From positions 1 to 64,000 of IMG/VR virus record IMGVR_UViG_3300045119_000370: 64,000 bases of DNA. One strand, given 5' to 3'. This DNA comes from a virus. Every line of letters starts with the position of its first letter. The stretch's first letter is position 1. The position numbers and the translations under genes were made by a program. Below, one piece after another: positions 13,736-40,243 of this stretch. The notes beneath the pieces are model-generated. The model saw only the letters and a program-made list of their open reading frames with translations, did not search any database and was not told the origin of the DNA.

Positions 13736-13764
13736 TCGCACCTTCCCCATGGGGGTGCCGATCT

Positions 13765-13806
13765 GGGCGGGAGGGCAACTGGGAGATTGCTCTTCCGCCC
13801 TTTTTT
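13765..13806 (+). terminator. Rho-independent terminator
   Basis: GGGCGGGAGGGCAA..TTGCTCTTCCGCCC stem followed by T6. Confidence 0.65.
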
Positions 13807-13822
13807 GAGAGGGAGAGGTTCA

Positions 13823-14874: not shown

Positions 14875-14875
14875 A

Positions 14876-15628: not shown

Positions 15629-16443
15629 CCGACCCGATTCGCATCTTTGTCGGCTGCGCGGCGAACAACGAGGATTTGGAATCCCAAGCCGTCCTCGATT
15701 ACACACTGCACAAGCACACTATGCGGCCGCTCGACATCGAATGGATGATGCAGAGCCGCGACCCGAAGAGCTTCTGGCATGGTTGGAACACGGCGACGTG
15801 GGCGACGCCGTTCTCAGGCTTCCGCTGGGGCGTGCCGGCGCGCTGCAACTTCGAAGGCAAGGCGATTTACCTCGACAGCGACATGATCGTCATGGACGAC
15901 ATCGGCAAGCTGTGGGACACGCCGCTGATCGACAAGCACGTGGTCATCGCCAAGGCGGCCAACAATCGCTTCTGCACCACCGTGTTCGATTGCGCCAAGG
16001 TCAAGCCGTACATGTTCTCAATCGGGGAACTGAAGACGCAGCAGGGCATCCATCGTCGACAACGTGAGCGCCTGTCGAAACCCGGACTGGTCCAGCCGTT
16101 CCCGCGAGGCGAGAACTGGAATTGCATCGATGGCGAGACCTACGTCGATATCGCCACCGACGTCATCAAAATCCACCATTACAGCGCCATCGATTGCCAG
16201 CCGCAGCTGCGCTATGCACTGCCACGTCTCGCCGAGAAAGGTCAGGCGCACTGGTTTAAGGGAACTATCAAGCCGCACTGGCGGCAGGACTTGGTGACGT
16301 TGTTCGACATGACCCTGCGACAAGCCATCGACGCCAACTACCACCCCGAGAACTACACGCACAAGCCGTTCGGCGATTACACTGCCGGCGGCTCGGAGGG
16401 CGGCGTTTTCAAGACTGGTCGTCCAGCCAAGCTGGGCGTCTGA
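15625..16443 (+). CDS. GT-A glycosyltransferase, paralog of 12938-13735
   Basis: IRIFVGCAANNEDLESQAVL, WATPFSGFRW, YLDSD. Confidence 0.8.
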   Translation: MTDPIRIFVGCAANNEDLESQAVLDYTLHKHTMRPLDIEWMMQSRDPKSFWHGWNTATWATPFSGFRWGVPARCNFEGKAIYLDSDMIVMDDIGKLWDTPLIDKHVVIAKAANNRFCTTVFDCAKVKPYMFSIGELKTQQGIHRRQRERLSKPGLVQPFPRGENWNCIDGETYVDIATDVIKIHHYSAIDCQPQLRYALPRLAEKGQAHWFKGTIKPHWRQDLVTLFDMTLRQAIDANYHPENYTHKPFGDYTAGGSEGGVFKTGRPAKLGV

Positions 16444-17021
16444 TGGTCACCCTCGACGATTTGGCCTCGCCGGGCTACCGCGCGCAGCTGCGCGAGATGG
16501 CCGAGAAGGGTGCATGGTCGGGTGGCGGTGCTGCCTATGCCGAGGAGGTCGCCAAGCTTTGTCGCAAGTGTGAGGCGACCAGCCTCCTCGACTACGGTTG
16601 CGGCTTCGTCGACATGGCGTCCGAGCTAAGCCAGATCAAAGCCCCCTTTCGCCCACCGCTCATGGTCGAGTATTTCGACCCCGGCATTCCCGGCTGCGAT
16701 CAGCTGCCCGAGCCGGCCGACGTGGTCATGTGCGTTGACGTATTGGAGCACGTCGAGCCGGACAAGGTGCAAACAGTGTTGCGCCACATCCACTCGCTGA
16801 CCATCAAGTGCGCGCTGCTGGTGATCGCGGTGCGCCCGGCCGACAAGCGTCTGCCCGACGGTCGCAACGCACATCTGACCATCGACAATTCCGGCTGGTG
16901 GTTTCACCAGCTGCGCGCGCTCGGCGGCTGGAAGGGCAAGATCATCGAGAACGACGACCGTCATGGTCTGCACATGTGGCTGCGCAAGATCGCCACCACG
17001 ACGACGAGGACACTCGATTGA
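16443..17021 (+). CDS. Class I SAM-dependent methyltransferase
   Basis: LLDYGCG motif I, DVVMCVDVLEHV, DGRNAHL. Confidence 0.85.
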   Translation: MVTLDDLASPGYRAQLREMAEKGAWSGGGAAYAEEVAKLCRKCEATSLLDYGCGFVDMASELSQIKAPFRPPLMVEYFDPGIPGCDQLPEPADVVMCVDVLEHVEPDKVQTVLRHIHSLTIKCALLVIAVRPADKRLPDGRNAHLTIDNSGWWFHQLRALGGWKGKIIENDDRHGLHMWLRKIATTTTRTLD

Positions 17022-17593
17022 AGCACGGCTGGTTCGAGATCGATGGCTTGCAGACCGGCGAGCACAAGCTGGAGACTCGTCTGCACGGGCTGCGCCTGTT
17101 GGCGTCCCACGTCAAGGACAAGACCATCCTCGATCTCGGCTGTGCCGAGGGCTTGATCAGTTCGTGGCTCTACGATCAGGGTCCGGCGCGCTGGGTGGAT
17201 GGTGTCGAGAAGCATCCGCCCTATCTGGCGCAGGCGCGCGCGATGCACGCCGGCAGTCCGGCCTTCCGCTTCTTCCAGTGCGACGTCAACGATCAGGAGT
17301 TCGACGATCTGATCCTGACCAAGCTGTTGCCGGCCTACGATATCGTTCTGTGCCTGTGTCTGGCACACAAGCTGAAGCGGCCGCGCGACTTCTTGCTCAA
17401 GGCGGCGCGGCTGTGCAATCGTTTCTTCGCGCTGCACCTGCCCTACGACATCATCGACGACGTCCGCTCGAATCATGTCAAGGTCGATCCGACCAAGGAG
17501 ATATTCGAGCCGCTTGGTTTCAAGTGTATCGTGCACGTGGTCGATCCGACGCCGGCAGCGCCACTGTCGCGGCGGATTTACGAGAGAGGCTGA
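17018..17593 (+). CDS. Class I SAM-dependent methyltransferase
   Basis: TTGA overlap start; ILDLGCAEG, VDGVE, YDIVLCL. Confidence 0.8.
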   Translation: MKHGWFEIDGLQTGEHKLETRLHGLRLLASHVKDKTILDLGCAEGLISSWLYDQGPARWVDGVEKHPPYLAQARAMHAGSPAFRFFQCDVNDQEFDDLILTKLLPAYDIVLCLCLAHKLKRPRDFLLKAARLCNRFFALHLPYDIIDDVRSNHVKVDPTKEIFEPLGFKCIVHVVDPTPAAPLSRRIYERG

Positions 17594-17595
17594 TC

Positions 17596-17805
17596 ATGGG
17601 CGAGAAGCGAAAAACACTTGTCATCGTCTGCCGCGACGAGGAGGGCAGTCTCGAAGATTTACTTACCTACATCAAAAAGACCGCCGGCATAGGTCACAGC
17701 TTCGTCGTTCACGTCGACCCGGAAGATCGCGAGTTCAGTAAGCGTTTCACCATCGACGGTGACGGTGCCGACAAGATTTACAGCATAACCAGAACCGAGG
17801 GGTGA
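17596..17805 (+). CDS. Hypothetical protein
   Basis: GAGG RBS; GHSF.V.VDP..F.IDGDG.DKI. Confidence 0.55.
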   Translation: MGEKRKTLVIVCRDEEGSLEDLLTYIKKTAGIGHSFVVHVDPEDREFSKRFTIDGDGADKIYSITRTEG

Positions 17806-18524
17806 CCGTGCTCAATCCGTTCATGGCGCGCTGCGTCAAGCGACTGGTCGATGGTGGCCTAATCGGCCGCGTCATCGAGTTCGGCAATCAGCGCTATGGT
17901 GCCAAGGGCGTCGTCAAGGGCACCGAGAAGGCGACTACTACCGAGCAGTTTTACAGGGCGCTGGGCTTCACCGAGTACGTGGCGATTGACGTTAACAATA
18001 ACATGGGCGCGGTGATCGCCGACCTCAACGAGCCAATCAGCAGCCATATCATTGGTAAGTACGATTTGGTTACCAATAACGGCACTGGCGAACATTTATT
18101 CGATCAGTGCATGGTGTTCACGAACGCGCACGACCTGTGCAAGCTTGCCGGCGTCATGCTGCACGTGCTGCCGTTCTCGCCATGGATCAATCATGGCTTC
18201 TACAGCTACAATCCGATTTTGTTCCGCGATCTCGCGGCCGCCAACGGCTACCGCATCATGTTCATCTCCATCGATCACCGCAACGGTGGCAACAACGACG
18301 TGCTGGGCAACGCCGAGCCGTGGCTGTACCAAGAGAAGAACCCGGAGGGTCTCATCGCCTTCATGAACAAGAAACGGGCGAAGGCCCCGACCCCTGACCT
18401 GCTTCTTGGCGTCGCTTTGCAGAAGCAGTCGGCCGACCCGTTCCGCAAGCCGCTGCAAGGCAAATACCAGACCGACGTGGCGAGCGTCGCCTTGCGCGAC
18501 AAGTACCGACCGGTGACACCATGA
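17802..18524 (+). CDS. Methyltransferase-fold protein
   Basis: VIEFGNQ, YVAID, ADLN, YDLVTNNGTGEHLFDQ, NHGFY. Confidence 0.7.
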   Translation: MTVLNPFMARCVKRLVDGGLIGRVIEFGNQRYGAKGVVKGTEKATTTEQFYRALGFTEYVAIDVNNNMGAVIADLNEPISSHIIGKYDLVTNNGTGEHLFDQCMVFTNAHDLCKLAGVMLHVLPFSPWINHGFYSYNPILFRDLAAANGYRIMFISIDHRNGGNNDVLGNAEPWLYQEKNPEGLIAFMNKKRAKAPTPDLLLGVALQKQSADPFRKPLQGKYQTDVASVALRDKYRPVTP

Positions 18525-19324
18525 ACTTGTCGATCTTGCAGCGCGCCGGCACCCCGTACTTCTCGCCCTACCCGCACATCGTCATCGAGAACTGCCTGCC
18601 CGACGAGCTATACGACGAATTGGAAGCGACGCGGCCGAGCGACGAGTATCTGGTCAATGGTCGACCGTTTAGCTCGAACATGCGGATGGACCTGCACGCG
18701 CGCGAACTCTTGTTAAAGATGAAGGTGCGCGATCTGACCAACCAGAAACCGTTCGGAATCTGGCGCGAGTTCATCGAGTACCACGTGTCGAACGCGTTCT
18801 GGCAGGAGGTCATCAAGGTCTTCGATGCCGAGCTTGGTCCGGGCAGCGCCATGGCTGGTTGGATGCTGAACTTTACTGGACAGCCGTTGTCCCTCATACC
18901 GACGATCATTCGCACCGAGCCGCCGTCGAAGAAGGCGATCTCGATGGACGTCAACGTCGGTGTCAACACGCCGGTCGTCGGCCCGGCCACCAGTGTGCGC
19001 GGCCCGCACGTCGACAACCCCATCGAGGTGTTCGCGGCGATGCTCTACATGCCGCCCAAGGACGCGCCCGACGAGGGCGGCGACTTCGTCATCTACGAGA
19101 AGAGCCGGACGGTGCGCTTCGAGGGCAAGGCCGAGGTCCGCGCCACCGACGTGAGATCGTTGGTCGAGCATGCCCGTATTAAGTACAAGCGAAATACTAT
19201 GGTGGCCTTCCTGAACTCGGTTCACGCGATCCACGGTGTGACGCCGCGTTTAAGTCGCGATTTCCGCCGGCTGGTCAATTTCATCGTCGAATTGCCCTTT
19301 GCACAGTTCGAGTTGCCACGCTGA
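18521..19324 (+). CDS. 2OG-Fe(II) oxygenase
   Basis: PYPHIVIEN, GPHVD (HxD), GGDF, NTMVAF, IHGV, distal R. Confidence 0.85.
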   Translation: MNLSILQRAGTPYFSPYPHIVIENCLPDELYDELEATRPSDEYLVNGRPFSSNMRMDLHARELLLKMKVRDLTNQKPFGIWREFIEYHVSNAFWQEVIKVFDAELGPGSAMAGWMLNFTGQPLSLIPTIIRTEPPSKKAISMDVNVGVNTPVVGPATSVRGPHVDNPIEVFAAMLYMPPKDAPDEGGDFVIYEKSRTVRFEGKAEVRATDVRSLVEHARIKYKRNTMVAFLNSVHAIHGVTPRLSRDFRRLVNFIVELPFAQFELPR

Positions 19325-20163
19325 TGGGCGTCGGTGACGAACTCATGGCGATGGGTGACGCGGCCCGCTTGCGCGGCGGCCGCGAGATCAAGGTCGCCAT
19401 CGGCGACGGCCGCTCGCCCTACACATCGCCGCTGCACCAGAACGTGCCATGGCTGTGGAAGTCCGGCGAGCGCATCCCGGCCGACGCGCACTGGATCATC
19501 AGCCACCCCGGCAACCGGCCCTATTGCGATTACGACCGCATGATCCGCGAGGCGCGCGAGCGCTTCGGCTGGAAAGGAGGAATAGACGGCAAACAGGCGT
19601 TTCAACTCCTTAAGCGCAAATACTGGCGGCAGAGCTACCACGCGACGCCGGCACCGGTTGCCTTGACCGACTGGGAGTGCGCCATGGGTCGCCTCCTGAT
19701 CAACCAACTTGAGGGGACGCTCGTCCTGATCGAGCCGAACATCAAGCCGGGTGCACCCGAGAATAAGCGGTGGCCGTTCGCCCGCTACCAACAGGTGGTA
19801 AACGCGTACAAGGACCGCTGCACCTTCGTCCAATTCGGGCGGCCGCTGCTCGATGGTGCCGTTGCATTGGCCGCGCAGCCCGTCAGGATCGCGCTGGGGC
19901 TGCTCATGGCGGTCGACGCCTATGTCGGCACCGAGGGCTTTCTGCACCACGCTGCGGCCGCTCTGGGCAAGCCTGCCGTGGTGATCTTCGGCGGCTACAT
20001 CAACCCGAAGGTCACCGGATACGCCAGCCACCAGAACTTGTGGGTGGAATGCGAGGACGAGGGATGCCCCGGGCCGACGCCGGCCGGCGAGGCGGCGCTG
20101 GCGGCGATCACCGTCAAGCAGGTGGTCGCGGCGCTCGATCTGGCGCTTGATGGGAGGGAATGA
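19324..20163 (+). CDS. GT-B glycosyltransferase family 9 (heptosyltransferase-like)
   Basis: MGVGDELM, NKRWP, VQFG, EGFLHHAAAALGKPAVVIFGG. Confidence 0.8.
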   Translation: MGVGDELMAMGDAARLRGGREIKVAIGDGRSPYTSPLHQNVPWLWKSGERIPADAHWIISHPGNRPYCDYDRMIREARERFGWKGGIDGKQAFQLLKRKYWRQSYHATPAPVALTDWECAMGRLLINQLEGTLVLIEPNIKPGAPENKRWPFARYQQVVNAYKDRCTFVQFGRPLLDGAVALAAQPVRIALGLLMAVDAYVGTEGFLHHAAAALGKPAVVIFGGYINPKVTGYASHQNLWVECEDEGCPGPTPAGEAALAAITVKQVVAALDLALDGRE

Positions 20164-20450
20164 TGAAAAAGCCGCGATTTGATTTAGCCAAGCTTCAGCC
20201 GCGACAGTATGTTCAGCCGCGCATTCTCGATTTTGACGATGATGATGCGGAAACCGAGCCGGAAACCGAGCCTAAGAAATTCGAGAATATAGCGGTCCCT
20301 TTTTGTCACACAGAAGATGGTCGGTGTTATTTGACCGAGCGACAGCTATCGGAAAATCCTTACTTACGGGACTTCGTCGACCGCTTTCGTGATTGCTTTA
20401 CCTTCGATATGAGGAGCTACACTTACTGGTTTGAGGAAAAGAAACCGTAA
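20160..20450 (+). CDS. Hypothetical protein (more AT-rich)
   Basis: GGGAGG RBS; acidic stretch with tandem GGAAACCGAGCC. Confidence 0.5.
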   Translation: MMKKPRFDLAKLQPRQYVQPRILDFDDDDAETEPETEPKKFENIAVPFCHTEDGRCYLTERQLSENPYLRDFVDRFRDCFTFDMRSYTYWFEEKKP

Positions 20451-20476
20451 ACGGCTGACCGACGAGGGAGAATCAC

Positions 20477-21178
20477 GTGCAGGAAGTTAAGGGCATCTGG
20501 CTACCCGACGACGAAGTCCACTTCGTCAAGATGGTCAAGGAAGGCCCCGAGTTCGCCGGCAAGGGCACCTATCAGTTGCGTAAGATCGAGGCCGTCATCC
20601 CCTACGTTAGGAACTTTCGCCATGCCGTCGACGTCGGCGCGCATAGCGGCATGTGGGCGCGCGTGCTCCTTCACTACTTCAGCAAGCTTACTGCGTTCGA
20701 ACCGATGCCGGCGCACATCGAGTGCTTCTTTCGCAACGTCGTCATGGGCGATCACGTCAAGCTTCACGAGGTGGCGCTGGGCGACAAGACCGGCATGGTG
20801 ACCTTTCACACTGCACGCGGTTCGACCGGCAACACACGTGTTCAAGACGACGGCGAGCGCACAGCCCAGCCTTACGCCAAAGAGGCGGTGATCTTCGAGA
20901 ACCCCGGCGAAGCCATGATGATGCGGCTCGATGATTGCGTGCTCGTCGACCCGGTCGTCGACCTCATCAAGGTCGACTGCGAGGGCTACGAGTATTTTGT
21001 GCTCAAGGGCGGCGAGGAGACCATCAAGCGAACGCACCCGGTGATCATCGTCGAACAGAAAGTGGGCAAGGGCGCACAGTACGGCATCGACGATCTGGCC
21101 GCGTGCACGCTCCTCGAATCGTGGGGGATGAAGCGTAAGAAGGTCATTTCGGGCGACTACATCTACACTTGGAAATGA
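20477..21178 (+). CDS. FkbM-family methyltransferase
   Basis: VDVGAHSG, AFEP, VALGD, RLDD, LIKVDCEGYE..VLKG. Confidence 0.9.
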   Translation: MQEVKGIWLPDDEVHFVKMVKEGPEFAGKGTYQLRKIEAVIPYVRNFRHAVDVGAHSGMWARVLLHYFSKLTAFEPMPAHIECFFRNVVMGDHVKLHEVALGDKTGMVTFHTARGSTGNTRVQDDGERTAQPYAKEAVIFENPGEAMMMRLDDCVLVDPVVDLIKVDCEGYEYFVLKGGEETIKRTHPVIIVEQKVGKGAQYGIDDLAACTLLESWGMKRKKVISGDYIYTWK

Positions 21179-22005
21179 GCACGAACCGCACTGTCTGGAT
21201 GTGCATCTCGCCCAACCGTGTCGAGAAGAGCGGCCGCGTCATGAAGGCGTTGGCCGCCGGTTGGCCGGGCGCGGTCGTGGTCACTGGCCCGCCGCCCGAG
21301 GACGGCAACTTGTTCGTCTGCTTCGGTCAGATATGGCTGGCGGAAGACCTGATCAAGAAAGCCATCCCGCAGCGCCGGCCCTTCTTTCAGGTCGACAACG
21401 GCTTCTGGAAGCCGAGCCGAGGTCAGCCGCATGGCTACTACCGACTGATGTACTCGCGCCCCGATCCGGTGTTCGTCACCGATCTGACACTGCTCCAGCA
21501 GCGCATGCGTGATGGTGGCCCCGATCTCATCGTGCCCTACAAGCCCCTGCGGCAGGCCGGCGAGCACGTCCTCATAGCCATGCCCGGCGAGGAGTTCGGG
21601 CGCGCGCACGGCCTCGACATGCGACCGTGGATGAAGACCATCGTCGAGCGGGTCAGGACGGTCACCAAGCGACGCGTCATCGTGCGTGACCGCATGGCAA
21701 CCAGTTCGCTGTCTTTCGATCTCAGGCATTGCTGGGCGATGGTGACGCACTCGTCGAATGTGGCGGTCGATGCGATCCTCGCCGGCATTCCGGTGTTCGT
21801 CGAGCCGACCTCGATGGCCGCGCCGGTCGGCAACCTGTCACTCGACAAGCTGGAAACCCCGACCTTCCCGGCGGGCGACCTGTTCTACACGTGGTGGACC
21901 AGCCTGATGTGCCAGCAGTTCACCTTCGCCGAGATGCGCAAGGGCGTCGCGCACCACTTCTTGTCGACGATCCATGGTATTGGACAGTCCGGGACTGTCC
22001 AATGA
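21175..22005 (+). CDS. GT-B protein resembling capsule-modification (KpsS/KpsC-like) glycosyltransferases
   Basis: VDNGF, VLIAMPG, VIVR, VTHSSNVAVDAILAGIPVFV. Confidence 0.65.
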   Translation: MSTNRTVWMCISPNRVEKSGRVMKALAAGWPGAVVVTGPPPEDGNLFVCFGQIWLAEDLIKKAIPQRRPFFQVDNGFWKPSRGQPHGYYRLMYSRPDPVFVTDLTLLQQRMRDGGPDLIVPYKPLRQAGEHVLIAMPGEEFGRAHGLDMRPWMKTIVERVRTVTKRRVIVRDRMATSSLSFDLRHCWAMVTHSSNVAVDAILAGIPVFVEPTSMAAPVGNLSLDKLETPTFPAGDLFYTWWTSLMCQQFTFAEMRKGVAHHFLSTIHGIGQSGTVQ

Positions 22006-23603: not shown

Positions 23604-23810
23604 TTAGTAAATGTTGACGACCTTGTGCCGATTGTAGGTCTCGTTGATCTTGATCTGCTTCTGGTCCTGCTTGCCGGTGCCTTTGCAGCTGAAGCACATG
23701 CCGCCGTGGCTCATCTTGCCGTTGACGCTGGTGCCCCACTGGTAGACCCCGGTCCCCTTGCACTTCTGGCAGACGCCGGGCTTGCTGTTGACTACTGCGA
23801 AGTCGGTCAT
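23604..23810 (-). CDS. Small DnaJ-type zinc-finger protein
   Basis: CQKCKGTG and CFSCKGTG repeats. Confidence 0.7.
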   Translation of the reverse strand: MTDFAVVNSKPGVCQKCKGTGVYQWGTSVNGKMSHGGMCFSCKGTGKQDQKQIKINETYNRHKVVNIY

Positions 23811-23916
23811 GGTCTTGGTCCCTTCGTTCTTCCTACGCACTAGAGGTAAGCGCTCTTTAGCTGATATCAAGTGCACTGACGCATGGCAGATATGAAATAA
23901 GTGTACGGTGTCCAGC

Positions 23917-23945
23917 TTGACAACAGACATAGGCCCCTCTATCTC
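23917..23945 (+). promoter_or_regulatory. Rightward sigma70-type promoter
   Basis: TTGACA-N17-TATCTC. Confidence 0.65.
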
Positions 23946-23949
23946 ATGG

Positions 23950-24345
23950 TCGTGGTCGTGAACTGAGAACGGGGTCCGGGAGAGCCGGTGAACCGGAAGC
24001 AGGGGCGGCCATGGAGTTCCGGCTTACCGGAGCGAGTTCCACGGGCCACTCTTATGACCGTGTGCCAGATGACGAGTCTGGTAATGTCCGAAGGCCAAGG
24101 GCAGCACGCGAGGGGTGAGAAAACTGGGAGGGCGGTTCTAGACCGCCGTCGAGACGGTCCCTCTGTCTCCGCTTCGGTAAGCCGGAACAGTGATCTCAGG
24201 TGAGCCGCTCACAATGGAGTACAGGCTCGACGATGCCGGCGGATTAGCTCTCGCATGTGTCCGCTCATGGGTGTCGGTGACCAGCGATGGCGAGTGCGAC
24301 GGTCACGAGGGCGGGATGCCCCGGCGGTTCGCCTGAGAACACTGA
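23950..24345 (+). ncRNA. Putative large structured non-coding RNA, family not recognised
   Basis: Long helices 24016-24034/24170-24188 and 24188-24208/24324-24344 with G-U pairs, internal hairpins, upstream promoter, no credible ORF. Confidence 0.6.
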
Positions 24346-24356
24346 AGGAGGGGACC

Positions 24357-24572
24357 ATGGACCGCGAGAAGATCGAGAAGGCGCTGGACGATGGCACGCT
24401 CGCTATCAAGGTCGGCCGCAATTGGGTGCCGGCACGGCGCGGCCTCGCCGCCACCATTGAATTGGCCGATGGCGATTGGTTGATAAGTGTGGTTGGTGGT
24501 CCCAGCCGCGCGCGAGGTTTCATCACCAACATCGAAAACAATCGCGACGGCCGCGATTTCGCATTCGTGTGA
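24357..24572 (+). CDS. Hypothetical protein
   Basis: AAGGAGG RBS; MDREKIEKALDDG.. Confidence 0.6.
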   Translation: MDREKIEKALDDGTLAIKVGRNWVPARRGLAATIELADGDWLISVVGGPSRARGFITNIENNRDGRDFAFV

Positions 24573-24657
24573 TCCATGCAAGCTTTTGGTCACTGTAGCC
24601 ACGTGTGCTGTCGGCAGGATAAGGTGTGCTGCGGCTGTTGTGGCAGGAGGATCGACC

Positions 24658-24864
24658 ATGGCGCTTTACTGGCACCCGACCGGCCCGCATATGGAGTGGA
24701 CCGAGGGCATACTGCGGATCAGCAACCTCAATCCCGAAGTCAAGACCCAGTGGACGATGACGCGCGGTCAGATGTTTGTGCTCGGTCTGCGTTGTGTGTT
24801 CGCTTCACTGGTCGGCTTGCGCAGCGCTAAGCCGCCGGTCAGTCCACAGGGTGTCAAGCCATGA
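24658..24864 (+). CDS. Hypothetical protein
   Basis: AGGAGG RBS. Confidence 0.5.
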   Translation: MALYWHPTGPHMEWTEGILRISNLNPEVKTQWTMTRGQMFVLGLRCVFASLVGLRSAKPPVSPQGVKP

Positions 24865-25061
24865 AGGTCGGTGAAGGTGTCGCAGTGCGTGAGATCACGC
24901 TGCCGAGCGGGCAGGAGCGTTGGATACCTGCGGTCGTGATCGCTGTCCACGACGAGCACAATTCCTTTTCCGTGGAGGCTTTCAGGGGTCGTGCCTTCGA
25001 CAAAGAAGGTCACACGCGCATGGTGCTGCGCTTCGCCGACAGAGACCGAGGCTGGCGCTAA
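24861..25061 (+). CDS. Small SH3-like hypothetical protein
   Basis: ATGA overlap; MKVGEGV.V..W.PA.V. Confidence 0.5.
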   Translation: MKVGEGVAVREITLPSGQERWIPAVVIAVHDEHNSFSVEAFRGRAFDKEGHTRMVLRFADRDRGWR

Positions 25062-25123
25062 TCGGTTGCCAAGGCTGGTAAATGGCGGCATAAAGGCGCG
25101 ACTCACTGAGGAGCGCGCCTCTG

Positions 25124-25708
25124 ATGGTTGCTCGAACTGCGCTGATACTTGGCCGGGCAGCGACCGTCTGGAACGAGATAGAAGCGGCGAGAAAGCTCGC
25201 CGTTTTCGACGTCATCATCGCCATCAACCGTATGGGACGCGACTTCAAAGAGCCGTTTCAGCACTGGGTTTCCTACCATCCCGATTTCTTTCCGCAATGG
25301 ACGCGCGAGCGTAAGGAACCATTACCAGACGGTTTGATGTACTGGTCCGGTATCTACAAGAACAACCGGATGGGCGACTCTAAGAGGATTAAACTACCGA
25401 TTCAGTACTGTAGGTTTTCAGGTGGTTCGTCAGGTATGCTGGCGATCAAGGTGGCCATTGATGGTCTCGGCCTCGAACGCATCGTTTTGGCCGGCATCCC
25501 GATGGACAACACGCCGCGTTACGATGACAAGGTAGCTTGGCGCGAGGCCGACGCTTACTGGATTGCTTGGATCAACGAGAAGCCTTGGATGGCTGGTCGA
25601 GTTCGTTCGATGTCAGGCAGGACCAGTAAGCTCTTGGGTACGCCCGATGCGGCTTGGCTCGGCGAGGAGAAGACCGATGCTGGCGAAGGTGTCACCGTTG
25701 CCGCGTGA
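25124..25708 (+). CDS. Maf/sialyltransferase-like (MptE/GT42-like fold) protein
   Basis: ALILG, VIIAIN, GGSSG..AI..A..LG..RIVLAGIPMD. Confidence 0.65.
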   Translation: MVARTALILGRAATVWNEIEAARKLAVFDVIIAINRMGRDFKEPFQHWVSYHPDFFPQWTRERKEPLPDGLMYWSGIYKNNRMGDSKRIKLPIQYCRFSGGSSGMLAIKVAIDGLGLERIVLAGIPMDNTPRYDDKVAWREADAYWIAWINEKPWMAGRVRSMSGRTSKLLGTPDAAWLGEEKTDAGEGVTVAA

Positions 25709-26747
25709 ACCAACGCTGCAAATGCAAGACGATCTGGAGGCGCATTTTCAACAGGCTTTCCAACGCTATGTTGGTGGTCTGCGCAACTCGCCCACGCTGG
25801 CGCGAGCGGCCACGCGCGCGCAGGACGGCGACGATGTCGATGCACTGATGGAGCAGTTTCAGCCGTACATCGAGCGGCTGGCCGAGGAGCGCCGCCGCAT
25901 GGCCGCGCACGTGATCGTCAACACACGCAAGGAATTGAGCCGCAAGCTCTTGGGCAAGGCGGACGGGGAAACCGACGGTGCTGGAGACTTGAACAGCACC
26001 GTCGGTTTATCGTTCGATCCCGAGCTTGCTGCCGCTGCATCGCTGATGGAGGGCCAAGACCTCGACTTCATCGTCGAGTTCACCGATGCACAGCGTGAGG
26101 CCGTGCGCACGGCCCTGACCAGAGCGTTGCAGACTGGCAAGGGCACGGCGGCTACGGCGCGCTCGTTCCGTAATTCGATTGGCCTGACATCGGCTCAGCA
26201 GAGCGCCGTCGACACTTACGAAGAGCTTCTCCAGAGTAACAGCGCGGAAGCGCTCGACCGCATCTTGCGTGACAGCCGCTACGACGCCGGCTTGACGACG
26301 GCAATCGCTGCCGGCGAGCCGCTGAGCGCCGGCCGTATCGCTACCATGGTCGACAGCTACGCTTCGCGTTATCTGGCCATGCGAGCCGAGACCATCGCTC
26401 GTACCGAGACCACGCGTGTTCTGAACATGGCGCGACAGGAGACCACCATGCAAGTGGTCGACGATGTCGGCATCCCGGCGGACGAGGTCGTGCGCACTTG
26501 GACCGCCACCAATGACAAACGCACACGTGATACGCACGCCGCCATGGATGGGCAGGAACGTGGCTTAAACGAGCCATTTGATAGCCCGTCCGGCGCGCAA
26601 TTGATGTACCCGGGCGACCCGGATGCTCCCGCCGAAGAGGTCATAAACTGCCGTTGTGCTGTGTTGATTTCGTTCAAATCGACGGCCCCGACGGCCGATG
26701 AGACGGCGGCGGCGGTGGACGAAGTGGTGGCTGATGAAGGTGGATGA
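25698..26747 (+). CDS. Phage MuF-like minor head protein
   Basis: RAETIARTE, RTW.AT.D.RTR.TH..MDGQ, L.YPGDP..PAEEVINCRC. Confidence 0.9.
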   Translation: MPREPTLQMQDDLEAHFQQAFQRYVGGLRNSPTLARAATRAQDGDDVDALMEQFQPYIERLAEERRRMAAHVIVNTRKELSRKLLGKADGETDGAGDLNSTVGLSFDPELAAAASLMEGQDLDFIVEFTDAQREAVRTALTRALQTGKGTAATARSFRNSIGLTSAQQSAVDTYEELLQSNSAEALDRILRDSRYDAGLTTAIAAGEPLSAGRIATMVDSYASRYLAMRAETIARTETTRVLNMARQETTMQVVDDVGIPADEVVRTWTATNDKRTRDTHAAMDGQERGLNEPFDSPSGAQLMYPGDPDAPAEEVINCRCAVLISFKSTAPTADETAAAVDEVVADEGG

Positions 26748-27099
26748 GGAGGAGCATCGGGCGCGTGTCGTCTACACCGAGGCGGTGCTGGCCAAGATTC
26801 CCTTGTTGGTCATGGATGGCTGGAGCCTCGACGCGATTGCCGCGTATATCGGGACCAGTGAGGGGAGCTTGCTGGCGACGTGTTCACGGCTGGGAATCAG
26901 CTTGAAAGGTGCCAAGAAACCGAAGGGTAAGCGGGTTACGGACGAATATGTGGTCCGTTTGCCTAAGCCATTGTCGGAAAAGCTGGAAAGCCGGGCGCTC
27001 GACCTCTCGATGACCACCGAACATCTGGTTGTGGTGCTGCTTAGCCAGATCGTGGCTGACAATTTGATCGAGGCCGTGCTCGATTTCGACGCCGATTAG
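26734..27099 (+). CDS. HTH (GcrA-like) plus ribbon-helix-like DNA-binding protein
   Basis: GWSLDAIAAYIGTSEGSL..CSRLGISL; C-terminal VVRLP..L.EKL..RA. Confidence 0.55.
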   Translation: MKVDEEEHRARVVYTEAVLAKIPLLVMDGWSLDAIAAYIGTSEGSLLATCSRLGISLKGAKKPKGKRVTDEYVVRLPKPLSEKLESRALDLSMTTEHLVVVLLSQIVADNLIEAVLDFDAD

Positions 27100-27161
27100 A
27101 CCGGCTCGGAAAACTTAAACAACCACGCATTGGCACTGCTCGTGGGCCGGATTATGGCTAC

Positions 27162-28373
27162 GTGGTGCCTTACGCCAACAACTCTGATTTGCCCGCACAA
27201 GTGCGCGATGCACTGCCCGACGCAGCGCAGAGCCGCTTTCGCGCGGTGGTCAACTCGGCGCTGGCGCGCGGCCTGAGCGACGCCAAGGCGTTTGGTTCTG
27301 GCTGGGCCGTGATCAACAACGGTTGGATCAAGCCCGTTAACGGCGGCAAGTGGGTGCACAAGTCGGCGACGCCGCGCACTTTGTTCGCTTCGCGGCCGGT
27401 CGAGAACGCCAAGGACGTGATCGATTGGGCCAAGGGTCAGGGTTTCCCGACCACGCTTGTCCCCGAAGCCATGCATGTCACGCAGGCGTACTCGAAAGAG
27501 CCGTTGCAGTGGCCCGAGACGCTCGACAACACCGTCACCGTGGATGGCACGGCCGGTCGCAAGGTCGGCTCGCTCGGTGATCAGGGCGCGATGGTCCTCC
27601 ATTTCGACAGCCCGGCGCTGAGCGACCGTCACCAGCAATTGCGTGATGCCGGCGCGTCGTCGGATTACCCGCTTTACCAACCGCACGTCACCATCAGCTG
27701 GAAGGCCGATGGTGTCGATCCGTCCAAGGTGACTCCCTACACCGGACCAATCGTGCTTGGCCCGGAACGCTTCCGCGAGATCGACCCCAACTGGGAGCAG
27801 AAAGCCATGGAAAAGGCTGGTGCACGTCACAACGCCTCCGACCGCAAGCATGTGCAATCGGTCCATGACAGCGCAGTGCATCTCGGCGCGGACTGTCCCG
27901 GTATGGCCAAGCGCGACGACCTCGACGACGAGCGCTTCGAGAAGTTCGACGCACTGACCACCATCAACGGTGCCGGCGAGCCGGCGTCACGCGCCAGTGT
28001 CATCAAGGTCAGTGACGAACTCGGTCTGGTGTTCGGCTGGGCCATGATCTGCAAAGACGGCGGCAACGATTACTTCGATGTGCAGGACGACCACATCCCC
28101 GAAGACGCCATGCTCAAGGCGAGCGCAGAGTTCATGCTGAGCCGGCGCGTCGCCAAAGAGATGCACTTCGGCGACGAGATGGGCACCATCGTTTTCGCCT
28201 TTCCGGTCACCTCTGATGTCGCCAAGGCGATGAACATCTCGACCGACCGCACTGGTTTGATGATTGCGATGAAGCCTTCCAGTGAAGCGCTCTTGGAGAA
28301 GTTCAGGAGCGGCGAATACACCGGTTTCAGTATCGGTGGTCAACGTCTCGTCGATGAGGAGATGGCGGCATGA
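27162..28373 (+). CDS. Fusion: ChaB domain + Acb1-like 2H phosphodiesterase + XkdF-like prohead serine protease
   Basis: PYANNSDLP..V..LP..AQ..NSA..W..KW (ChaB); HVTQAYS..RH..GA..DY..Y.PHVTIS (2H); LVFGWA..D.QDD..EMH..GEYTGFSIGG (protease). Confidence 0.8.
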   Translation: MVPYANNSDLPAQVRDALPDAAQSRFRAVVNSALARGLSDAKAFGSGWAVINNGWIKPVNGGKWVHKSATPRTLFASRPVENAKDVIDWAKGQGFPTTLVPEAMHVTQAYSKEPLQWPETLDNTVTVDGTAGRKVGSLGDQGAMVLHFDSPALSDRHQQLRDAGASSDYPLYQPHVTISWKADGVDPSKVTPYTGPIVLGPERFREIDPNWEQKAMEKAGARHNASDRKHVQSVHDSAVHLGADCPGMAKRDDLDDERFEKFDALTTINGAGEPASRASVIKVSDELGLVFGWAMICKDGGNDYFDVQDDHIPEDAMLKASAEFMLSRRVAKEMHFGDEMGTIVFAFPVTSDVAKAMNISTDRTGLMIAMKPSSEALLEKFRSGEYTGFSIGGQRLVDEEMAA

Positions 28374-29311
28374 GTGTCAACATCGATGGTGATCTGCACA
28401 AGCCCCGCCGCCGCAACATCATGCGAGCCTTCAAGATCAGTGAGATCAGTGCAGTCGACCGCCCGGCACAAGAAGGCGCGAAAGCGGCGATCATCAAGCG
28501 CAACAGTAACGCAAACACAGGAGACGGTTCGATGACCGAGAAGGAACTTCAGAAGAAGATCGACGACCTCGCCGCCGAGCTTGCCAAGGTGAAGGCCGAT
28601 GGCGAGGCCAAGATCGGTGATCTTTCGACGGCCAACGCCGAACTTGTCACCAAGGCGGCCGCCGCCACCGAGGAGGCCGAGACACTGAAGGCGAAGGGCA
28701 AGCTGACGCCACAGCAGCAGGCGTTCCTTGACCAGCAGGAAGGCGAGACCGCCGACGAGGACAAGAAGAAGAAGGCCACCAAGGCGTTCCTCGCCATGAC
28801 CCCCGAGCAGCGTGACAAGCTCATCGCCGAGAAGCGCGCCAACGACGAGGTCATCACCATCGACGGCGAGGAGATGCGCAAGTCGGTGATCGGCGCGACC
28901 CAGTTCAACATCCTGAAGCGGCAGTCCGAGCGCGTCGCCACACTGGAGAAGTCCAGTAAGGACGCCATCGAGAAGGCCGAGACGGCGGAACTCGCCAAGC
29001 GCGCCGACGATGAGTTCTCGCATCTACCCGGCACCACCGACGACAAGGTCGGTGTGCTGCGCGTCATCGGCAAGGCCGACAAGAAGGTGCAGGAGACGTT
29101 CGCCGCAATGATGAAGGCCGGCGAGAAGGCGATCAACGGCGCGTTCGAGAAGCTCGGTCATCGCGGTGGCAACCAGACGGTCGATGCCGGCGCATTCGAG
29201 AAGCGCGTCGCCGAGGTCCGCGCGCGCGATGGTTCCTCGCGCATGGACGCCATGGAGAAGGCCCGCAAGGAATTCCCCACCGAGTTCGCGGCCTACCAAG
29301 GCCAGAACTAA
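28370..29311 (+). CDS. Scaffolding protein with N-terminal protease-like strand
   Basis: EISAVDRPAQ then a long Lys/Glu/Ala coiled coil; lies between protease and capsid genes. Confidence 0.75.
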   Translation: MSVNIDGDLHKPRRRNIMRAFKISEISAVDRPAQEGAKAAIIKRNSNANTGDGSMTEKELQKKIDDLAAELAKVKADGEAKIGDLSTANAELVTKAAAATEEAETLKAKGKLTPQQQAFLDQQEGETADEDKKKKATKAFLAMTPEQRDKLIAEKRANDEVITIDGEEMRKSVIGATQFNILKRQSERVATLEKSSKDAIEKAETAELAKRADDEFSHLPGTTDDKVGVLRVIGKADKKVQETFAAMMKAGEKAINGAFEKLGHRGGNQTVDAGAFEKRVAEVRARDGSSRMDAMEKARKEFPTEFAAYQGQN

Positions 29312-29444
29312 GCTTGTCGGGGGTCGGCGCTTCCTCTCCCGATCCCCGCCCGGCACGCCGCCACGGTTTACTGGTCGCCCATACGGCCGTGGCGGTGGTG
29401 CTCAGTAAAGACACTGCTTTTGGAACAATAGGAGAAACTGAACC

Positions 29445-29792
29445 ATGACCACGAGCAAAGACCTTAGTCTCTCGTATGCCCGGCTGGCCGGCGCAGACCT
29501 GAGCAATGCACTGAACAAGTTCGGGATGGTCGACACCAACGGTAACATCGTCTTGGCGACCGCTGCCGCCAAAGTGCTCGGCACCATCATCGAAGAGAAC
29601 AACATCAACTACCCGGTCACCGTTCAGTACGGCGGGCAGGGCAAGGTCATCGTCGGTGCGGCACCGGTCACTGCCGGCGCGGTGATCGCTTCCGACGCCA
29701 ACGGTCTCGCCGTAGCCGGCGCGACCAACCCGGTCGGCGTTGCCCTGACCGGTGGCGCTCCCGGCACAGTCATCGAGTTCGCCTTCGCGTAG
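29445..29792 (+). CDS. Capsid decoration/cement protein (DUF2190-like)
   Basis: AGADL..KF..V..AG..I.SDANG.AV..GVAL; upstream of MCP. Confidence 0.75.
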   Translation: MTTSKDLSLSYARLAGADLSNALNKFGMVDTNGNIVLATAAAKVLGTIIEENNINYPVTVQYGGQGKVIVGAAPVTAGAVIASDANGLAVAGATNPVGVALTGGAPGTVIEFAFA

Positions 29793-29857
29793 GCGATCTC
29801 AGTAACCGCCGCTCGACTGAGCGGCACCCTTATTAACTGAACGAAAGGATTAACCCC

Positions 29858-30868
29858 ATGCCCGTCGCCTCGAACGATGGCGTAAACATTCAGGGTGCCC
29901 TTCACGTCGATAGGTACCTGACCGGCTTCTCGATCAACTACGTGCAGGACAGAAACAACTTCGTGTCGTATCGCGCCGCGTCGTTGATCTCGGTACAGAA
30001 ACAGACCGACCTCTACGTCGTCTACGACCGTGGCTTCTTCTGGCGCGACGAGGTGGCACCTCGCCCGCTCGGTGGTCGCCCCGAGCAAGTCGGCTACAAG
30101 TTCGCCGATGGCAGCTACAAGTGCACCGAGTTCGCACTGGAGCATGTCATTGACGACCGTCAGCGTGCCAACGCCGACGACCCGATCCGCCTCGATCAGA
30201 ACGCCACGACCCTGCTGACCCAGAAGCACATGATCAAGCAGGACAGGGTGTGGGCGCAGAATTTCTTCGTCCCCGGCGCATGGTCGACGCAGGCAACCGG
30301 TGTGGTCTCCGCACCCGGTAGCAACCAGTTCGTCCAGTTCAACGACGCGCTCTCACAGCCCATCGAGATCGTCGACTACTGGAAAGATCAGATGCACCAG
30401 AAGACCGGCTTCATGCCCAATACACTGGTGCTCGGCGCGGCGGTCAAGCGCATCCTGCGTTCGAACCCCGACATCGCCGACCGCATCAAGTACACCCGTA
30501 CCGGCGTCGCCGACGAAGACCTGCTCGGCTCGCTGTTCGAGGTCGACAACGTCGTCGTGGCGCGCTCGATCTACAATGCGGCGATGGAAGGCGCGGCCGA
30601 CAATTTCCAGTACATCGTCGACCCGAACGCCATGATCCTGCTCTACATCGAGCAGAACCCCGGCCTCGACAGCCCGACCGCCATCGCGAACTTCGCATGG
30701 ACCGGCCTCATCCCGGGCGAGACCAATGCCATCGGCGGCGTCATCGAGCGCGGCCGTGACGACCGTGCGCACTCCGATTACTTCCAAGGGCGCATGGCGT
30801 GGGATTTGCGCTTGGTCGCACCCGATCTCGGCGTGTTCTTCACCAACGCGGTAGCGCCCGGCTCGTAA
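29858..30868 (+). CDS. Major capsid protein
   Basis: 336 aa; HVDRYLT..SI.Y, G..PNTLVLG, DLR.VAPDLG.FF..AV. Confidence 0.9.
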   Translation: MPVASNDGVNIQGALHVDRYLTGFSINYVQDRNNFVSYRAASLISVQKQTDLYVVYDRGFFWRDEVAPRPLGGRPEQVGYKFADGSYKCTEFALEHVIDDRQRANADDPIRLDQNATTLLTQKHMIKQDRVWAQNFFVPGAWSTQATGVVSAPGSNQFVQFNDALSQPIEIVDYWKDQMHQKTGFMPNTLVLGAAVKRILRSNPDIADRIKYTRTGVADEDLLGSLFEVDNVVVARSIYNAAMEGAADNFQYIVDPNAMILLYIEQNPGLDSPTAIANFAWTGLIPGETNAIGGVIERGRDDRAHSDYFQGRMAWDLRLVAPDLGVFFTNAVAPGS

Positions 30869-30911
30869 GGCCCGGTCGCGTCAGTGTCAGTGTAAAAAGC
30901 GGGTACAAGCA

Positions 30912-31238
30912 ATGGCAAGAATGAGAGACCGCGAAGAGTTCGATTCCGACCGGGAGTTCGTTGTCATCCGCAAGATACGTGTGGGTGGTACCGATTTCAC
31001 TCCCGGTCAGGAGTTTCCCAAGCAGCTGTGCAACGCACGTCGGTTGCGTCAGCTGTTCGAGATTAGTGTCATCAAGATGAGCGCGCCACGTGAGCCGTCC
31101 TATCGCTCGCCAACGGCGCGCTTCGACGCGATGACACTGGAAGAACTCCGTGACTGGCTGACCAGTCATGGACAGGTGCCACGGGCGACGTGGGACCGTG
31201 GCAAGCTTCTCGAAGAGGCGACGGTGGTAGGCGGCTGA
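30912..31238 (+). CDS. Small head-associated protein with C-terminal HeH-like helices
   Basis: Follows MCP; DAMTLEELRDWL..G..KLL. Confidence 0.55.
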   Translation: MARMRDREEFDSDREFVVIRKIRVGGTDFTPGQEFPKQLCNARRLRQLFEISVIKMSAPREPSYRSPTARFDAMTLEELRDWLTSHGQVPRATWDRGKLLEEATVVGG

Positions 31239-31909
31239 TGTATTTCGATTTGTCGACCATGATTTGCAGAGACCTGTCGACGCCCGAGCCGATGACTCGG
31301 GCGGTGCCGGTCACCATCGACCGTGCCATGTACGAGCCGAACGGTGATCTGGTCCGTTGTCTCTTGAGCAATCAGACCGAGACATTGTGCGTTGATGATG
31401 ATCAGACGCAAATGGGACGACAATTGCAGGAGTGGAAGGAGGCCGGCAACACCATCGAGCCTTACGCGCCGCGACCGATTACTTACAACGACGTCGACAT
31501 CGAGCGCGACCGGCGCAACCATCTCGGTGAGCAGCTGTTCCTCAAGTCCGGCAAGGTCGTCAACGTCGCGACGGCGACCGGCGAGGATTACGACAATATC
31601 AATTATGCTTCCGACACTGCTCTGACCATGATTGCCAAGACGATCCCGGCGCTCGCTGCCGAGGCTACCGAGATCGATCCGAAAGCTCAACCGGACCCAC
31701 CGAGCATGACCTTCCGCGACTTTTATCGTCAGCCGGTGACCGTCACTTACCATGAAATGGCCGAGATCAGTGTGCGGGTCACGGACAACGTTAACTCGGT
31801 CAATCAGGCTGCGCACCTTTTGAAGGACATGGACCCGATCCCGCGCGATTACACTAACGACAGCTACTGGCCGACCATCCCGCGTCCACCGCTTAACCCG
31901 CCGTCATGA
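31238..31909 (+). CDS. DUF4376-like/tail-fibre-assembly-like protein
   Basis: EW..AGNTIEPY, ERDRR, LKDMDPIPRDYTNDSYWP. Confidence 0.6.
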   Translation: MYFDLSTMICRDLSTPEPMTRAVPVTIDRAMYEPNGDLVRCLLSNQTETLCVDDDQTQMGRQLQEWKEAGNTIEPYAPRPITYNDVDIERDRRNHLGEQLFLKSGKVVNVATATGEDYDNINYASDTALTMIAKTIPALAAEATEIDPKAQPDPPSMTFRDFYRQPVTVTYHEMAEISVRVTDNVNSVNQAAHLLKDMDPIPRDYTNDSYWPTIPRPPLNPPS

Positions 31910-32271
31910 GCTTTCTCGACACCATTCGTACCGAGATACAGCGGGGCTTCGCCGGCAAGCTCCGTAAGTGCACGCTCATGCGCATGGTCTCGACTGGGCA
32001 GGATGAGCTTGGCGACGCCCTCGCGCCGACCAAACAGACATGGCAGTTCGACGGCATGCGCGACAGCTTCAACGCTGCTTTCGCCGCCGCTGCCGGCATC
32101 CCGGTGAACGACGTGCGCATCCTGATCATTGCCGGTTCGCTCGCCACCGAGCCACGCATCGACGATAAAATTCAGTGTGAGGGGCGTTGGTTTCAGCTGC
32201 GCTCGCGCGTGTCGGTCGACCCGGCGACTGCCACGTACACTTACGCCGGCTTCGAGGTGCCAGCACCATGA
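31906..32271 (+). CDS. Head closure/head-tail joining protein
   Basis: GIP.ND.RILI..P..DDKI..DPA.AT. Confidence 0.75.
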   Translation: MSFLDTIRTEIQRGFAGKLRKCTLMRMVSTGQDELGDALAPTKQTWQFDGMRDSFNAAFAAAAGIPVNDVRILIIAGSLATEPRIDDKIQCEGRWFQLRSRVSVDPATATYTYAGFEVPAP

Positions 32272-32435
32272 GCACACTTGGTATCGTCCTCGTCGTCCTT
32301 CTGATCCTGCTCGTCGTCGGCGCGTTCCCAAACTGGGGATATTCGTCGACTTGGGGCTACGGCCCTTCTGGGCTGCTCGGTGTCGTGCTCATCGTGATCG
32401 TCATCCTCTTGCTCATGGGGAAGCTGAACATATGA
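32268..32435 (+). CDS. DUF3309-family small membrane protein
   Basis: LGIVLVVLLILLVVGAFPNWGYSSTWGYGPSGLLGVVLIV. Confidence 0.85.
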   Translation: MSTLGIVLVVLLILLVVGAFPNWGYSSTWGYGPSGLLGVVLIVIVILLLMGKLNI

Positions 32436-32833
32436 GCGTCACGTGGAACCAAGCCGAACTGATGGCTAGGCTGCGCCCGGCGATGGCACGTGGCGTCGTT
32501 AAGGGCGTCGAGCTTATTCGCAACGCCGCGATCAGTTCCATCCAGCAGGGCGGCAAGACCGGTCGTACTTATCGACGGCGTGGTGTCGTGCATCGTGCGT
32601 CGGCACCCGGTGAAGCTCCCGCCAGCGACACCGGTCGCTTGGTCAACTCGATCACTACCAGTTACGATTTGGAGCAGTTGAGTGGCACGGTGCAGGCGGG
32701 TACCGAGTACGCGCCGTGGCTGGAATTCGGCACCGCCAAGATGGAGCCGCGCCCGTTCATGCGGCCGGCGCTGATGGAGAACGCAGAGGCGGTCTTGGAA
32801 AGCATCGCAAACGAAATCAGGACGGCACTGTGA
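32432..32833 (+). CDS. HK97 gp10-like tail-completion protein
   Basis: HRASAPGEAPASDTGRLVNSI, YA.WLEFGT.KM.PRPFMRPA. Confidence 0.9.
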   Translation: MSVTWNQAELMARLRPAMARGVVKGVELIRNAAISSIQQGGKTGRTYRRRGVVHRASAPGEAPASDTGRLVNSITTSYDLEQLSGTVQAGTEYAPWLEFGTAKMEPRPFMRPALMENAEAVLESIANEIRTAL

Positions 32834-33294: not shown

Positions 33295-33322
33295 CACTGT
33301 CCCTTGAAAGGAGAAGCTTACC

Positions 33323-33805: not shown

Positions 33806-33897
33806 GGGTGAGGCTTGGGTCCGACTTGGACAGCCGGTGACTTGCGCCGGCTGTTCGTGTCATAGTGCACCCTTCCTTGAGAGGAGAGGGTCAGTAC

Positions 33898-34655: not shown

Positions 34656-34656
34656 C

Positions 34657-40239: not shown

Positions 40240-40243
40240 CAGC

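Follow-up and report, generated by a model that had tools for sequence, protein, structure and literature searches.

A strongly constrained two-domain structured RNA ahead of the head genes in an uncultured soil phage

Analysis of a 64,000-nt window of viral DNA (IMG/VR virus record IMGVR_UViG_3300045119_000370, positions 1 to 64,000) revealed a strand-specific, strongly constrained structured RNA of ~330 nt, encoded on the + strand at positions 24014–24345, that is outside every catalogued family. The full record, which CheckV rates as complete, is 117,742 bp long, and its opening 64 kb make up the window, with a G+C content of ~60%. The core of the element is predicted to form two multi-helix domains, each closed by a helix of ~20 bp (P1 and P1′), and comparison with a related viral contig, L003, indicates with high confidence that this is a real RNA structure maintained by selection. 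The element combines compensatory changes, a clear strand and sharp borders with a constant position where the head genes of this uncultured soil phage begin, and is small enough for direct synthesis and testing.

Fold and conservation of the two-domain core

P1 pairs 24016–24034 with 24170–24188 over 19 nt and was recovered in an independent inverted-repeat search with 95% complementarity in the DNA sense, equal to one G-U pair, exactly as claimed in the original prediction that had drawn attention to this region. In the minimum-energy fold, P1′ joins 24189–24209 to 24323–24343 through 20 pairs, three of them G-U, with one A-A mismatch at 24193/24339. The second helix as first proposed (24188–24208 with 24324–24344) is real, abuts P1 and contains the single mismatch, its coordinates being one base off and its G-U pairs numbering three instead of two. 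The two closing helices abut directly between 24188 and 24189; stacked on each other, they could make a continuous rod of ~40 bp, in whose middle the two ends of the RNA would meet. The interior of domain 1 (24035–24130) is predicted to be a long irregular arm ending in two hairpins (24066–24080 and 24085–24103, the second with the loop GAAGGCCAA), followed by the two variable hairpins B (24131–24147, stem GGCGGU/ACCGCC) and C (24151–24169, stem GAGACG/UGUCUC). Domain 2 (interior 24210–24322) is predicted to form a multi-branch junction of about four arms. All five enclosed hairpins named in the original prediction are present in the predicted fold, and in a scripted search for loop-loop pairing no two unpaired stretches were complementary over 5 bp or more.

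With RNA parameters, the + strand of 24014–24346 has a minimum free energy of −169.4 kcal/mol (z −6.27), its shuffles averaging −135.2 ± 5.5 kcal/mol with 0 of 100 as good, and the − strand reaches −133.7 kcal/mol (z −2.26), 1 of 100 shuffles being as good. With DNA parameters, the corresponding energies are −80.8 kcal/mol for the + strand (z −4.56; 0 of 100 shuffles as good) and −64.0 kcal/mol for the − strand (z −1.70; 5 of 100), and most of the domain 2 interior is lost from the fold. The RNA fold contains ~17 G-U pairs, ~15% of all pairs, every one of which works on the + strand only and is an A-C mismatch on the − strand, in agreement with the earlier statement that the G-U pairs favour the + strand. 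The full span first put forward (23945–24357) gives z values of −5.50 (+) and −1.28 (−); its size of ~400 nt does not hold, the conserved unit being ~330 nt and 23945–24013 a variable spacer. Among the 11 gene-free gaps of at least 300 nt in the genome, compared using 14 shuffles per gap, the gap containing the element is a clear outlier (z −6.5 on the + strand and −2.4 on the − strand) and the only strongly structured one with a clear strand bias.

A search with the 194-aa protein encoded downstream of the element as query identified two viral contigs, one of which, L003, extends upstream across the element region. L003 was found via this neighbouring protein and not via the RNA, and is hence free of ascertainment bias from shared RNA words. 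By blastn, the core is 91.9% identical between the window and L003 over 347 nt, with 81.1–85.3% identity in three flanking segments of 127–224 nt each and 85.4% over 2,437 nt in the 2.4 kb downstream. Two blocks, 24036–24133 (98 nt) and 24194–24340 (147 nt), are identical in the two sequences, and nearly all core differences are located in P1, hairpins B and C, and the P1/P1′ joint. Downstream, 24573–25130 (558 nt) carries 80 substitutions (14%), and by our own arithmetic the chance of so many unchanged core bases at a uniform rate is ~1e-16.

The RNAalifold consensus of the window and L003 contains 114 predicted pairs, all of which form in both sequences. All 15 substitutions at helix positions keep or restore pairing and none breaks a pair; five pairs show double compensatory changes (one in P1, two in hairpin B and two in hairpin C) and four pairs switch between G-C and G-U. 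In P1, the double-sided change is C-G to U-A at 24023/24181, accompanied by two changes between G-C and G-U. Hairpin B in L003 has the stem GGCAGC/GCUGCC, containing its two double compensatory pairs, and a loop 3 nt shorter. Hairpin C has the stem GAGUGG/CCACUC in L003 and in contigs from two metagenome runs described below, X7 and X24, with two double compensatory pairs, one change from G-U to G-C, and differing loops. In place of the A-A mismatch of P1′, L003, X7, X24 and a further run, X10, have a U-A pair; P1′ is fully paired in L003, where the inverted-repeat search found it as an 18-nt pair with 89% complementarity. In a control in which the 3′ partners were slid by 1–3 columns, 39–46% of cells paired and no double-sided changes were seen. 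Hairpins B and C diverge faster than the flanks with their pairing kept, so that within domain 1 these two hairpins change freely and always stay paired, while the remainder is invariant between phages whose neighbouring genes differ by ~14%. The collection of homologues and covariation check proposed with the original prediction thus yielded one independent homologue with five double compensatory changes and none that breaks a pair. With 24036–24133 identical in L003, the interior helices of domain 1 show no variation and are predicted from the fold.

The G-U content of ~15% and the several changes between G-C and G-U are characteristic of RNA and would be unfavourable as G-T pairs in DNA. 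Together with the loss of most of the domain 2 interior under DNA parameters, they make it very improbable that the element acts at the DNA level, whether as a + strand single-stranded DNA fold or as a duplex site, for example one that serves replication, priming or packaging or an attachment site derived from an RNA gene of the host. Such an element would suit the divergent intergenic position and the + strand z of −4.56 under DNA parameters, and compensatory changes alone cannot separate RNA from + strand single-stranded DNA; however, no integrase or terminase family was found beside the element, and the origin of the element as a copy of a host gene is disfavoured by the lack of any match to a 20-mer from its invariant part in 185,579 species genomes.

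Least probable of all is the absence of any functional RNA, with the region being instead a small protein gene or a recently exchanged block of DNA with an incidental fold. Recent exchange could explain the identity, but the many changes in hairpins B and C, which belong to this block, argue that it is not young. No reading frame is open through the core in both sequences, in which indels shift the frames. A 48-codon frame (24190–24336) is intact in both, the stretch there being identical; however, its GTG start is buried in P1′ without a Shine-Dalgarno (SD) sequence, neither a Pfam family nor a relative in 5.8 billion protein clusters was found for its 48-aa product, and the invariant stretch is unlike coding sequence because it lacks the synonymous changes that a coding gene would contain. 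Save for this invariant frame without relatives, no frame is common to the two homologues, in keeping with the original description of the region as one with no credible gene.

Borders, distribution and family membership

The 24 runs listed as carrying part of the core are all DNA and none RNA; they are metagenomes of soil, rhizosphere, roots and freshwater, no two belonging to one study, and three may be the source sample of the window. Contigs of four runs were aligned to the core, with uncovered stretches (e.g. 24420–24512, and 24357–24572 in X7 and X10) read only across bridging contigs. Core differences in these contigs occur only at hairpins B and C, at 24023/24181, at 24174 and in the joint 24188–24193, with no listed difference in the domain 2 interior. 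X7 carries the L003 versions of the variable features. In X24 and X10, hairpin C has the L003 stem with a different loop letter, and a third version of hairpin B, ~15 nt longer and reconstructed by hand from difference tables, has arms GCUGGC/GCCGGC that still pair. A single X7 contig has one difference in 153 positions over 24189–24341 and a single X10 contig two differences and one indel in the 175 nt of 24167–24341; in the same bridging contigs, 12 of 87 positions differ in the downstream flank 24614–24700.

The borders of the element are sharp, as different sequences are joined to it at 24013–24017 and 24341–24345 in different contigs. Upstream, the spacer between the putative promoter described below and the core (23945–24013) is 69 nt long in the window and ~230 nt longer in L003 and one X7 contig; in the metagenome contigs it is replaced by 244 or 39 other letters, the 39 belonging to other X7 and X10 contigs and being unrelated. 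Downstream, the window carries a 71-codon open reading frame (ORF; 24357–24572), a dispensable cassette between the RNA and the next gene that is absent from the L003, X7 and X10 contigs, where the core runs straight into GGAG-N4-ATGCAAGC, corresponding to window position 24576. The core ends ~3 nt before a ribosome-binding site in both the window and L003, although the first gene differs. Because both flanks, the spacer and the 71-codon ORF, vary between contigs, the conserved unit was set at 24014–24345. The 71-codon ORF has no family match and has CCATG at both of its borders, like a small inserted cassette.

A short cysteine-rich ORF (24576–24830; MQAF..C...CC.QDK.CCGCC.RRI, 24576–24660) lies directly after the RNA in L003-type phages. 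It retains 8 of 8 cysteines relative to L003 and shows four synonymous changes between TGC and TGT among 18 substitutions, and for these reasons looks translated. It overlaps the next ORF (24658–24864), which is in another frame and is preceded by a strong AGGAGG site of its own.

The element occurs once in the genome, and only the record containing the window and that containing L003 hold it in the collections searched. A blastn search in distant mode with 23811–24357 gave no match among 50,697 phage records. In viral contigs, a 16-mer from domain 1 was found at five loci, of which the L003 contig is real and the other four are chance matches, and a 17-mer from domain 2 in the L003 contig only; in metagenome contigs, a 20-mer was found at two loci, both in low-G+C coding sequence without wider match. 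At 43 viral loci with relatives of the Mu-F protein of the head-gene block, nhmmer found L003 only. When these 43 loci and the complete genome were searched with a covariance model of domain 2, only the window and L003 were recovered, the other matches having E ≥ 0.06 or lying on the reverse strand of the window or L003. Six viral loci with relatives of the adjacent zinc-ribbon gene contain no such RNA and have a different gene context.

No catalogued family accounts for the element. With Rfam 15, whose families in scope include riboswitches, RNase P, tmRNA, signal recognition particle (SRP) RNA, 6S, group I and II introns, GOLLD, ROOL, OLE, HEARO and raiA, no match reached the gathering score in the 64-kb window and none had E ≤ 10 over 23700–24500; the sole match over 24010–24350 was to sR23 (9.8 bits against a cut-off of 45, E 5.1) and is meaningless. 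ARAGORN found no tRNA or tmRNA in the window or in the whole 117.7-kb genome, so that the reported lack of a match to tRNA, tmRNA, RNase P, SRP or an intron was borne out, and the absence of an Rfam family together with the compensatory changes in L003 supports the initial interpretation as an undescribed phage non-coding RNA or regulatory leader. Apparent similarities, noted by eye, with helix 8 of SRP RNA and with the beginning of a tRNA were unsupported by Rfam and ARAGORN. Searches of the genome for proteins that partner known RNAs gave no match to reverse transcriptase (PF00078), as for a retron-type partner, nor to Ro/TROVE (PF05731), as for Y RNA/YrlA, for which there was likewise no Rfam match, nor to the RtcB, RNA ligase and RNase III families. 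A catalogue of 10,006 candidate viral RNAs is described as covering lengths of 29–151 nt and requiring at least three IMG/VR 3.0 regions (PMC10690425). Four core words were absent from the six searchable supplementary files of that catalogue, which amounts to a partial exclusion, and, judged by titles and abstract openings, none of the papers listed in a full-text literature search on novel intergenic phage RNAs with covariation reports such an element.

Transcription, candidate roles and genome setting

The sequence TTGACA-N17-TATCTC, originally proposed as a promoter, is present at 23917–23945, but its −10 box is poor by the E. coli rule and it was absent from an E. coli-type sigma-70 scan. 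Read one base to the left, the site becomes CTTGAC-N17-CTATCT (23916–23944, +) and fits the rhizobial type, matching 11 of the 12 positions of the Sinorhizobium meliloti sigma-70 consensus CTTGAC-N17-CTATAT (PMC2873474), the phage host itself being only likely alphaproteobacterial. It is the only match to CTTGAC-N17-CTATNT with at most one mismatch on either strand of the 64 kb (chance mean 0.29), and L003 has the same −35 box. The 36 bp that precede this box (23880–23915; CGCATGGCAG.TATGAAATAAGTGTACGG.GTCC) form a stretch that is nearly unchanged in L003 while the rest of the intergenic region diverges, and may be an operator or a leftward promoter for the − strand genes. A boxA-like CGCTCTTTA at 23851 was rejected as a candidate signal, being upstream of the promoter and not kept in L003.

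At its other end, the structure stops at the next ribosome-binding site, as the original prediction had it: the last pair is at 24343, the SD sequence AGGAGGGG at 24346–24353 and the ATG of the first downstream gene at 24357 (together 24346–24359). No terminator-like site was found in or just after the core. Because the element thus lies between the sole rhizobial-type promoter match and the first ribosome-binding site of the head-gene block, without a terminator after the core, the RNA is probably made from the CTTGAC-N17-CTATCT promoter as an untranslated leader of that block, which comprises small genes, a Mu-F-like head-morphogenesis gene, and genes for a protease, a scaffold and the major capsid protein.

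A cis-acting or processing role on the head-gene message is suggested tentatively, at somewhat less than an even chance. The RNA would be transcribed as the 5′ leader of the head operon and would act in cis on the head-gene message. P1 (19 bp with one G-U pair) and P1′ (20 bp with one mismatch) are near-perfect helices of the ~20 bp that make an RNase III substrate; cutting of both by the host enzyme would free each folded domain and give the head-gene mRNA a fixed 5′ end, a few bases short of its first ribosome-binding site, and so would set the stability and translation of this mRNA. Two more specific pairings were considered and rejected: the hairpin C loop is complementary to the SD sequence in the window, but neither loop nor SD keeps the match in L003, and a helix that would close the structure by pairing AUGGUC of the 5′ flank with GACCAU at the start codon fails because, in the window, AUGGUC is upstream of the likely transcript start.

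Several observations weigh against a selected leader RNA with a role in cis. Covariation backs only 3 of the 15 predicted helices plus the mismatch repair in P1′, and the other 12 never vary and are neither supported nor contradicted by it; two full sequences were aligned, and the shuffle control with two rows has a floor of ~13 in 500. The agreement of the metagenome runs on the invariant parts is partly ascertainment, as these runs were chosen by shared 31-letter core words. The SD sequence is predicted to be unpaired with a probability of 0.99 in the window and 0.61 in L003, so that simple SD masking is not conserved, and with no terminator in or after the core there is no expression platform of the riboswitch or attenuator type. 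An RNase III encoded by the phage was not found in the genome, and the host enzyme would have to act. Finally, near-total sequence invariance is more typical of ribozymes or ribonucleoprotein RNAs than of a stabilizing leader.

The last point leads to a serious rival, which is nevertheless considered unlikely: a free-standing, trans-acting or self-assembling ornate RNA (a ribozyme, a ribonucleoprotein scaffold or a multimeric particle) that would be co-transcribed with the head genes and freed by cuts in the closing helices, with hairpins B and C as lineage-specific recognition elements. The invariance of the 98- and 147-nt blocks while hairpins B and C diverge faster than the flanks and still pair, the sharp borders, and the 5′ and 3′ ends locked in long terminal helices, a pattern of stable RNAs, are all in its favour, as is the formation of RNA-only assemblies by large phage-borne RNAs such as GOLLD and ROOL (PMC12286853). 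Neither a terminator nor a second promoter separates the RNA from the mRNA, however, and there is no obvious protein partner: none of the neighbouring proteins belongs to an RNA-related family, the 194-aa one resembles transferases of the MptE/WaaZ type (a lead only), and the genome has no match to a reverse transcriptase, Ro, RtcB, RNA ligase or RNase III. The distribution, with two records in the collections searched, is also very narrow. A more elaborate form of this idea, which seems doubtful, is a self-contained RNA machine cut from the head-gene transcript at the two 20-bp helices, which by stacking would bring the two RNA ends together. The invariant 98- and 147-nt cores would do the work, either as a ribozyme or as a scaffold whose assembly partners are further copies of the RNA or proteins of the virion or host. 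The role of hairpins B and C would be that of swappable specificity tags against cross-talk between related co-infecting phages.

A long same-strand gene block beginning near a promoter would also suit a cis-acting processive antitermination RNA that binds its own RNA polymerase, like HK022 put, EAR, conAn2 and canT, and the conAn2 layout reported for pLS20 (a 238-bp centre with 20-bp inverted repeats) resembles each domain here (PMC8191782). Such a role is distinctly unlikely. In the same account, the 20-bp repeats of pLS20 are dispensable for antitermination and conAn2 needs ConAn1, encoded just upstream (PMC8191782), and nothing comparable was seen here: there is no + strand gene between 22540 and the RNA, the upstream genes being on the − strand, and no ConAn1 model was searched. 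Within 24300–44299, 20 terminator-like sites were found as against 15.1 ± 4.1 in shuffles, all of them weak, Rho-dependent sites being outside the scan, and the two strong intrinsic terminators of the window, at 13765–13800 (14-bp stem) and 49475–49506 (13-bp stem), are outside the block; the latter is bidirectional and closes the tail-gene block, with no strong terminator in the block before 49475. The + strand block is furthermore interrupted by − strand genes at ~32.4–34.4 kb.

The element is located in a divergent 546-bp gene-free gap between a set of five small − strand genes on the left, the last with its start codon at 23810, and the + strand gene block on the right, starting at 24357. 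The early part of this block consists of several small ORFs followed by the 194-aa protein (25124–25708), whose predicted fold offers the MptE/WaaZ lead mentioned above and which had no relative in species-genome contigs. Next come the head genes, with the Mu-F-like head-morphogenesis protein (PF04233, 6.5e-17; phrog_3517, 9.6e-75), an Acb1/XkdF protease fusion, the scaffold protein and the major capsid protein, and farther along the tape-measure and tail proteins. The host is likely an alphaproteobacterium, because the nearest named phages of the Mu-F protein (40–44% identity) infect Roseobacter, Rhizobium, Ruegeria and Erythrobacter. The proteins of the window include none with a portal or terminase family match, and Terminase_6N had no match anywhere in the 117.7-kb genome.

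Other features of the genome were observed in passing. The fusion in the head-gene block (27162–28373) is a single protein with a ChaB domain, an Acb1-type domain (anti-CBASS, 2H phosphoesterase; 5.4e-34) and an XkdF-type prohead protease domain. The ORF at 24–800, close to where the record begins, carries an ADP-ribosyltransferase exoenzyme domain (PF03496, 1.3e-19). Genes for glycosyltransferases, methyltransferases (FkbM and others) and 2OG-Fe(II) oxygenases form a run at 12938–22005; taken with the MptE/WaaZ-like protein adjoining the head genes, they suggest that the virion or the DNA is modified with sugars. A gene-free gap of 519 nt beyond the window, at 69635–70153, is more stable than its shuffles on each strand (z −3.9 and −3.4, 14 shuffles each) at a lower G+C content of 0.54, and may be a DNA-level element such as an origin.

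Comparison with known systems

The conAn2 regions are reported to be 260–600 bp long and to act in cis, with a 238-bp centre between 20-bp inverted repeats in pLS20 (PMC8191782). As far as that report goes, the RNA described here, as a probable leader, is like conAn2 of pLS20 in being an untranslated structured RNA of several hundred bases that heads a long mobile-element operon. It differs in having no sequence or Rfam relation to conAn2, no ConAn1-like gene upstream, a host that is probably an alphaproteobacterium where conAn2 belongs to Gram-positive conjugative elements, and an operon with no excess of intrinsic terminators. Of the other antitermination RNAs, put (~70 nt) and EAR (~120 nt) are much smaller than the 330-nt RNA.

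RNase III processing stems are found in the lambda N leader, in the early mRNA of T7 and in the stalks of 16S and 23S rRNA, the substrate being ~20 bp or about two turns. P1 and P1′ are similar in being ~20-bp helices whose strands enclose a folded unit and which precede a ribosome-binding site at close range. The known phage RNase III sites, however, are single irregular hairpins, whereas here the helices close invariant multi-branch domains of 110–135 nt and are candidate substrates by their length.

GOLLD and ROOL are reported as large phage-borne RNAs that form RNA-only assemblies (PMC12286853). On that description, the element is like them a large, highly conserved, multi-domain phage RNA, although their Rfam models do not match it. 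GOLLD and ROOL are also longer, at 500–800 nt, and stand alone near tRNA genes, whereas the element is 330 nt long and probably placed in a 5′ leader. The phi29 pRNA is a further phage structured RNA, with paired ends forming a long helix under a multi-branch head and a role in building the virion, and the element shares with it both the long helix of paired ends and the multi-branch head. pRNA is found in small phi29-type podoviruses and is encoded at the genome end; the phage here has a tape-measure protein and a 118-kb genome, and the two RNAs have no sequence relation.

To our knowledge, new structured RNAs of more than 300 nt with near-invariant cores are rare, and those known are mostly ribozymes, ribonucleoprotein components or large assemblies. 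Whether set among phage operon leaders or among large phage RNAs, the element stands out by its size, its dumbbell layout and its near-invariant cores.

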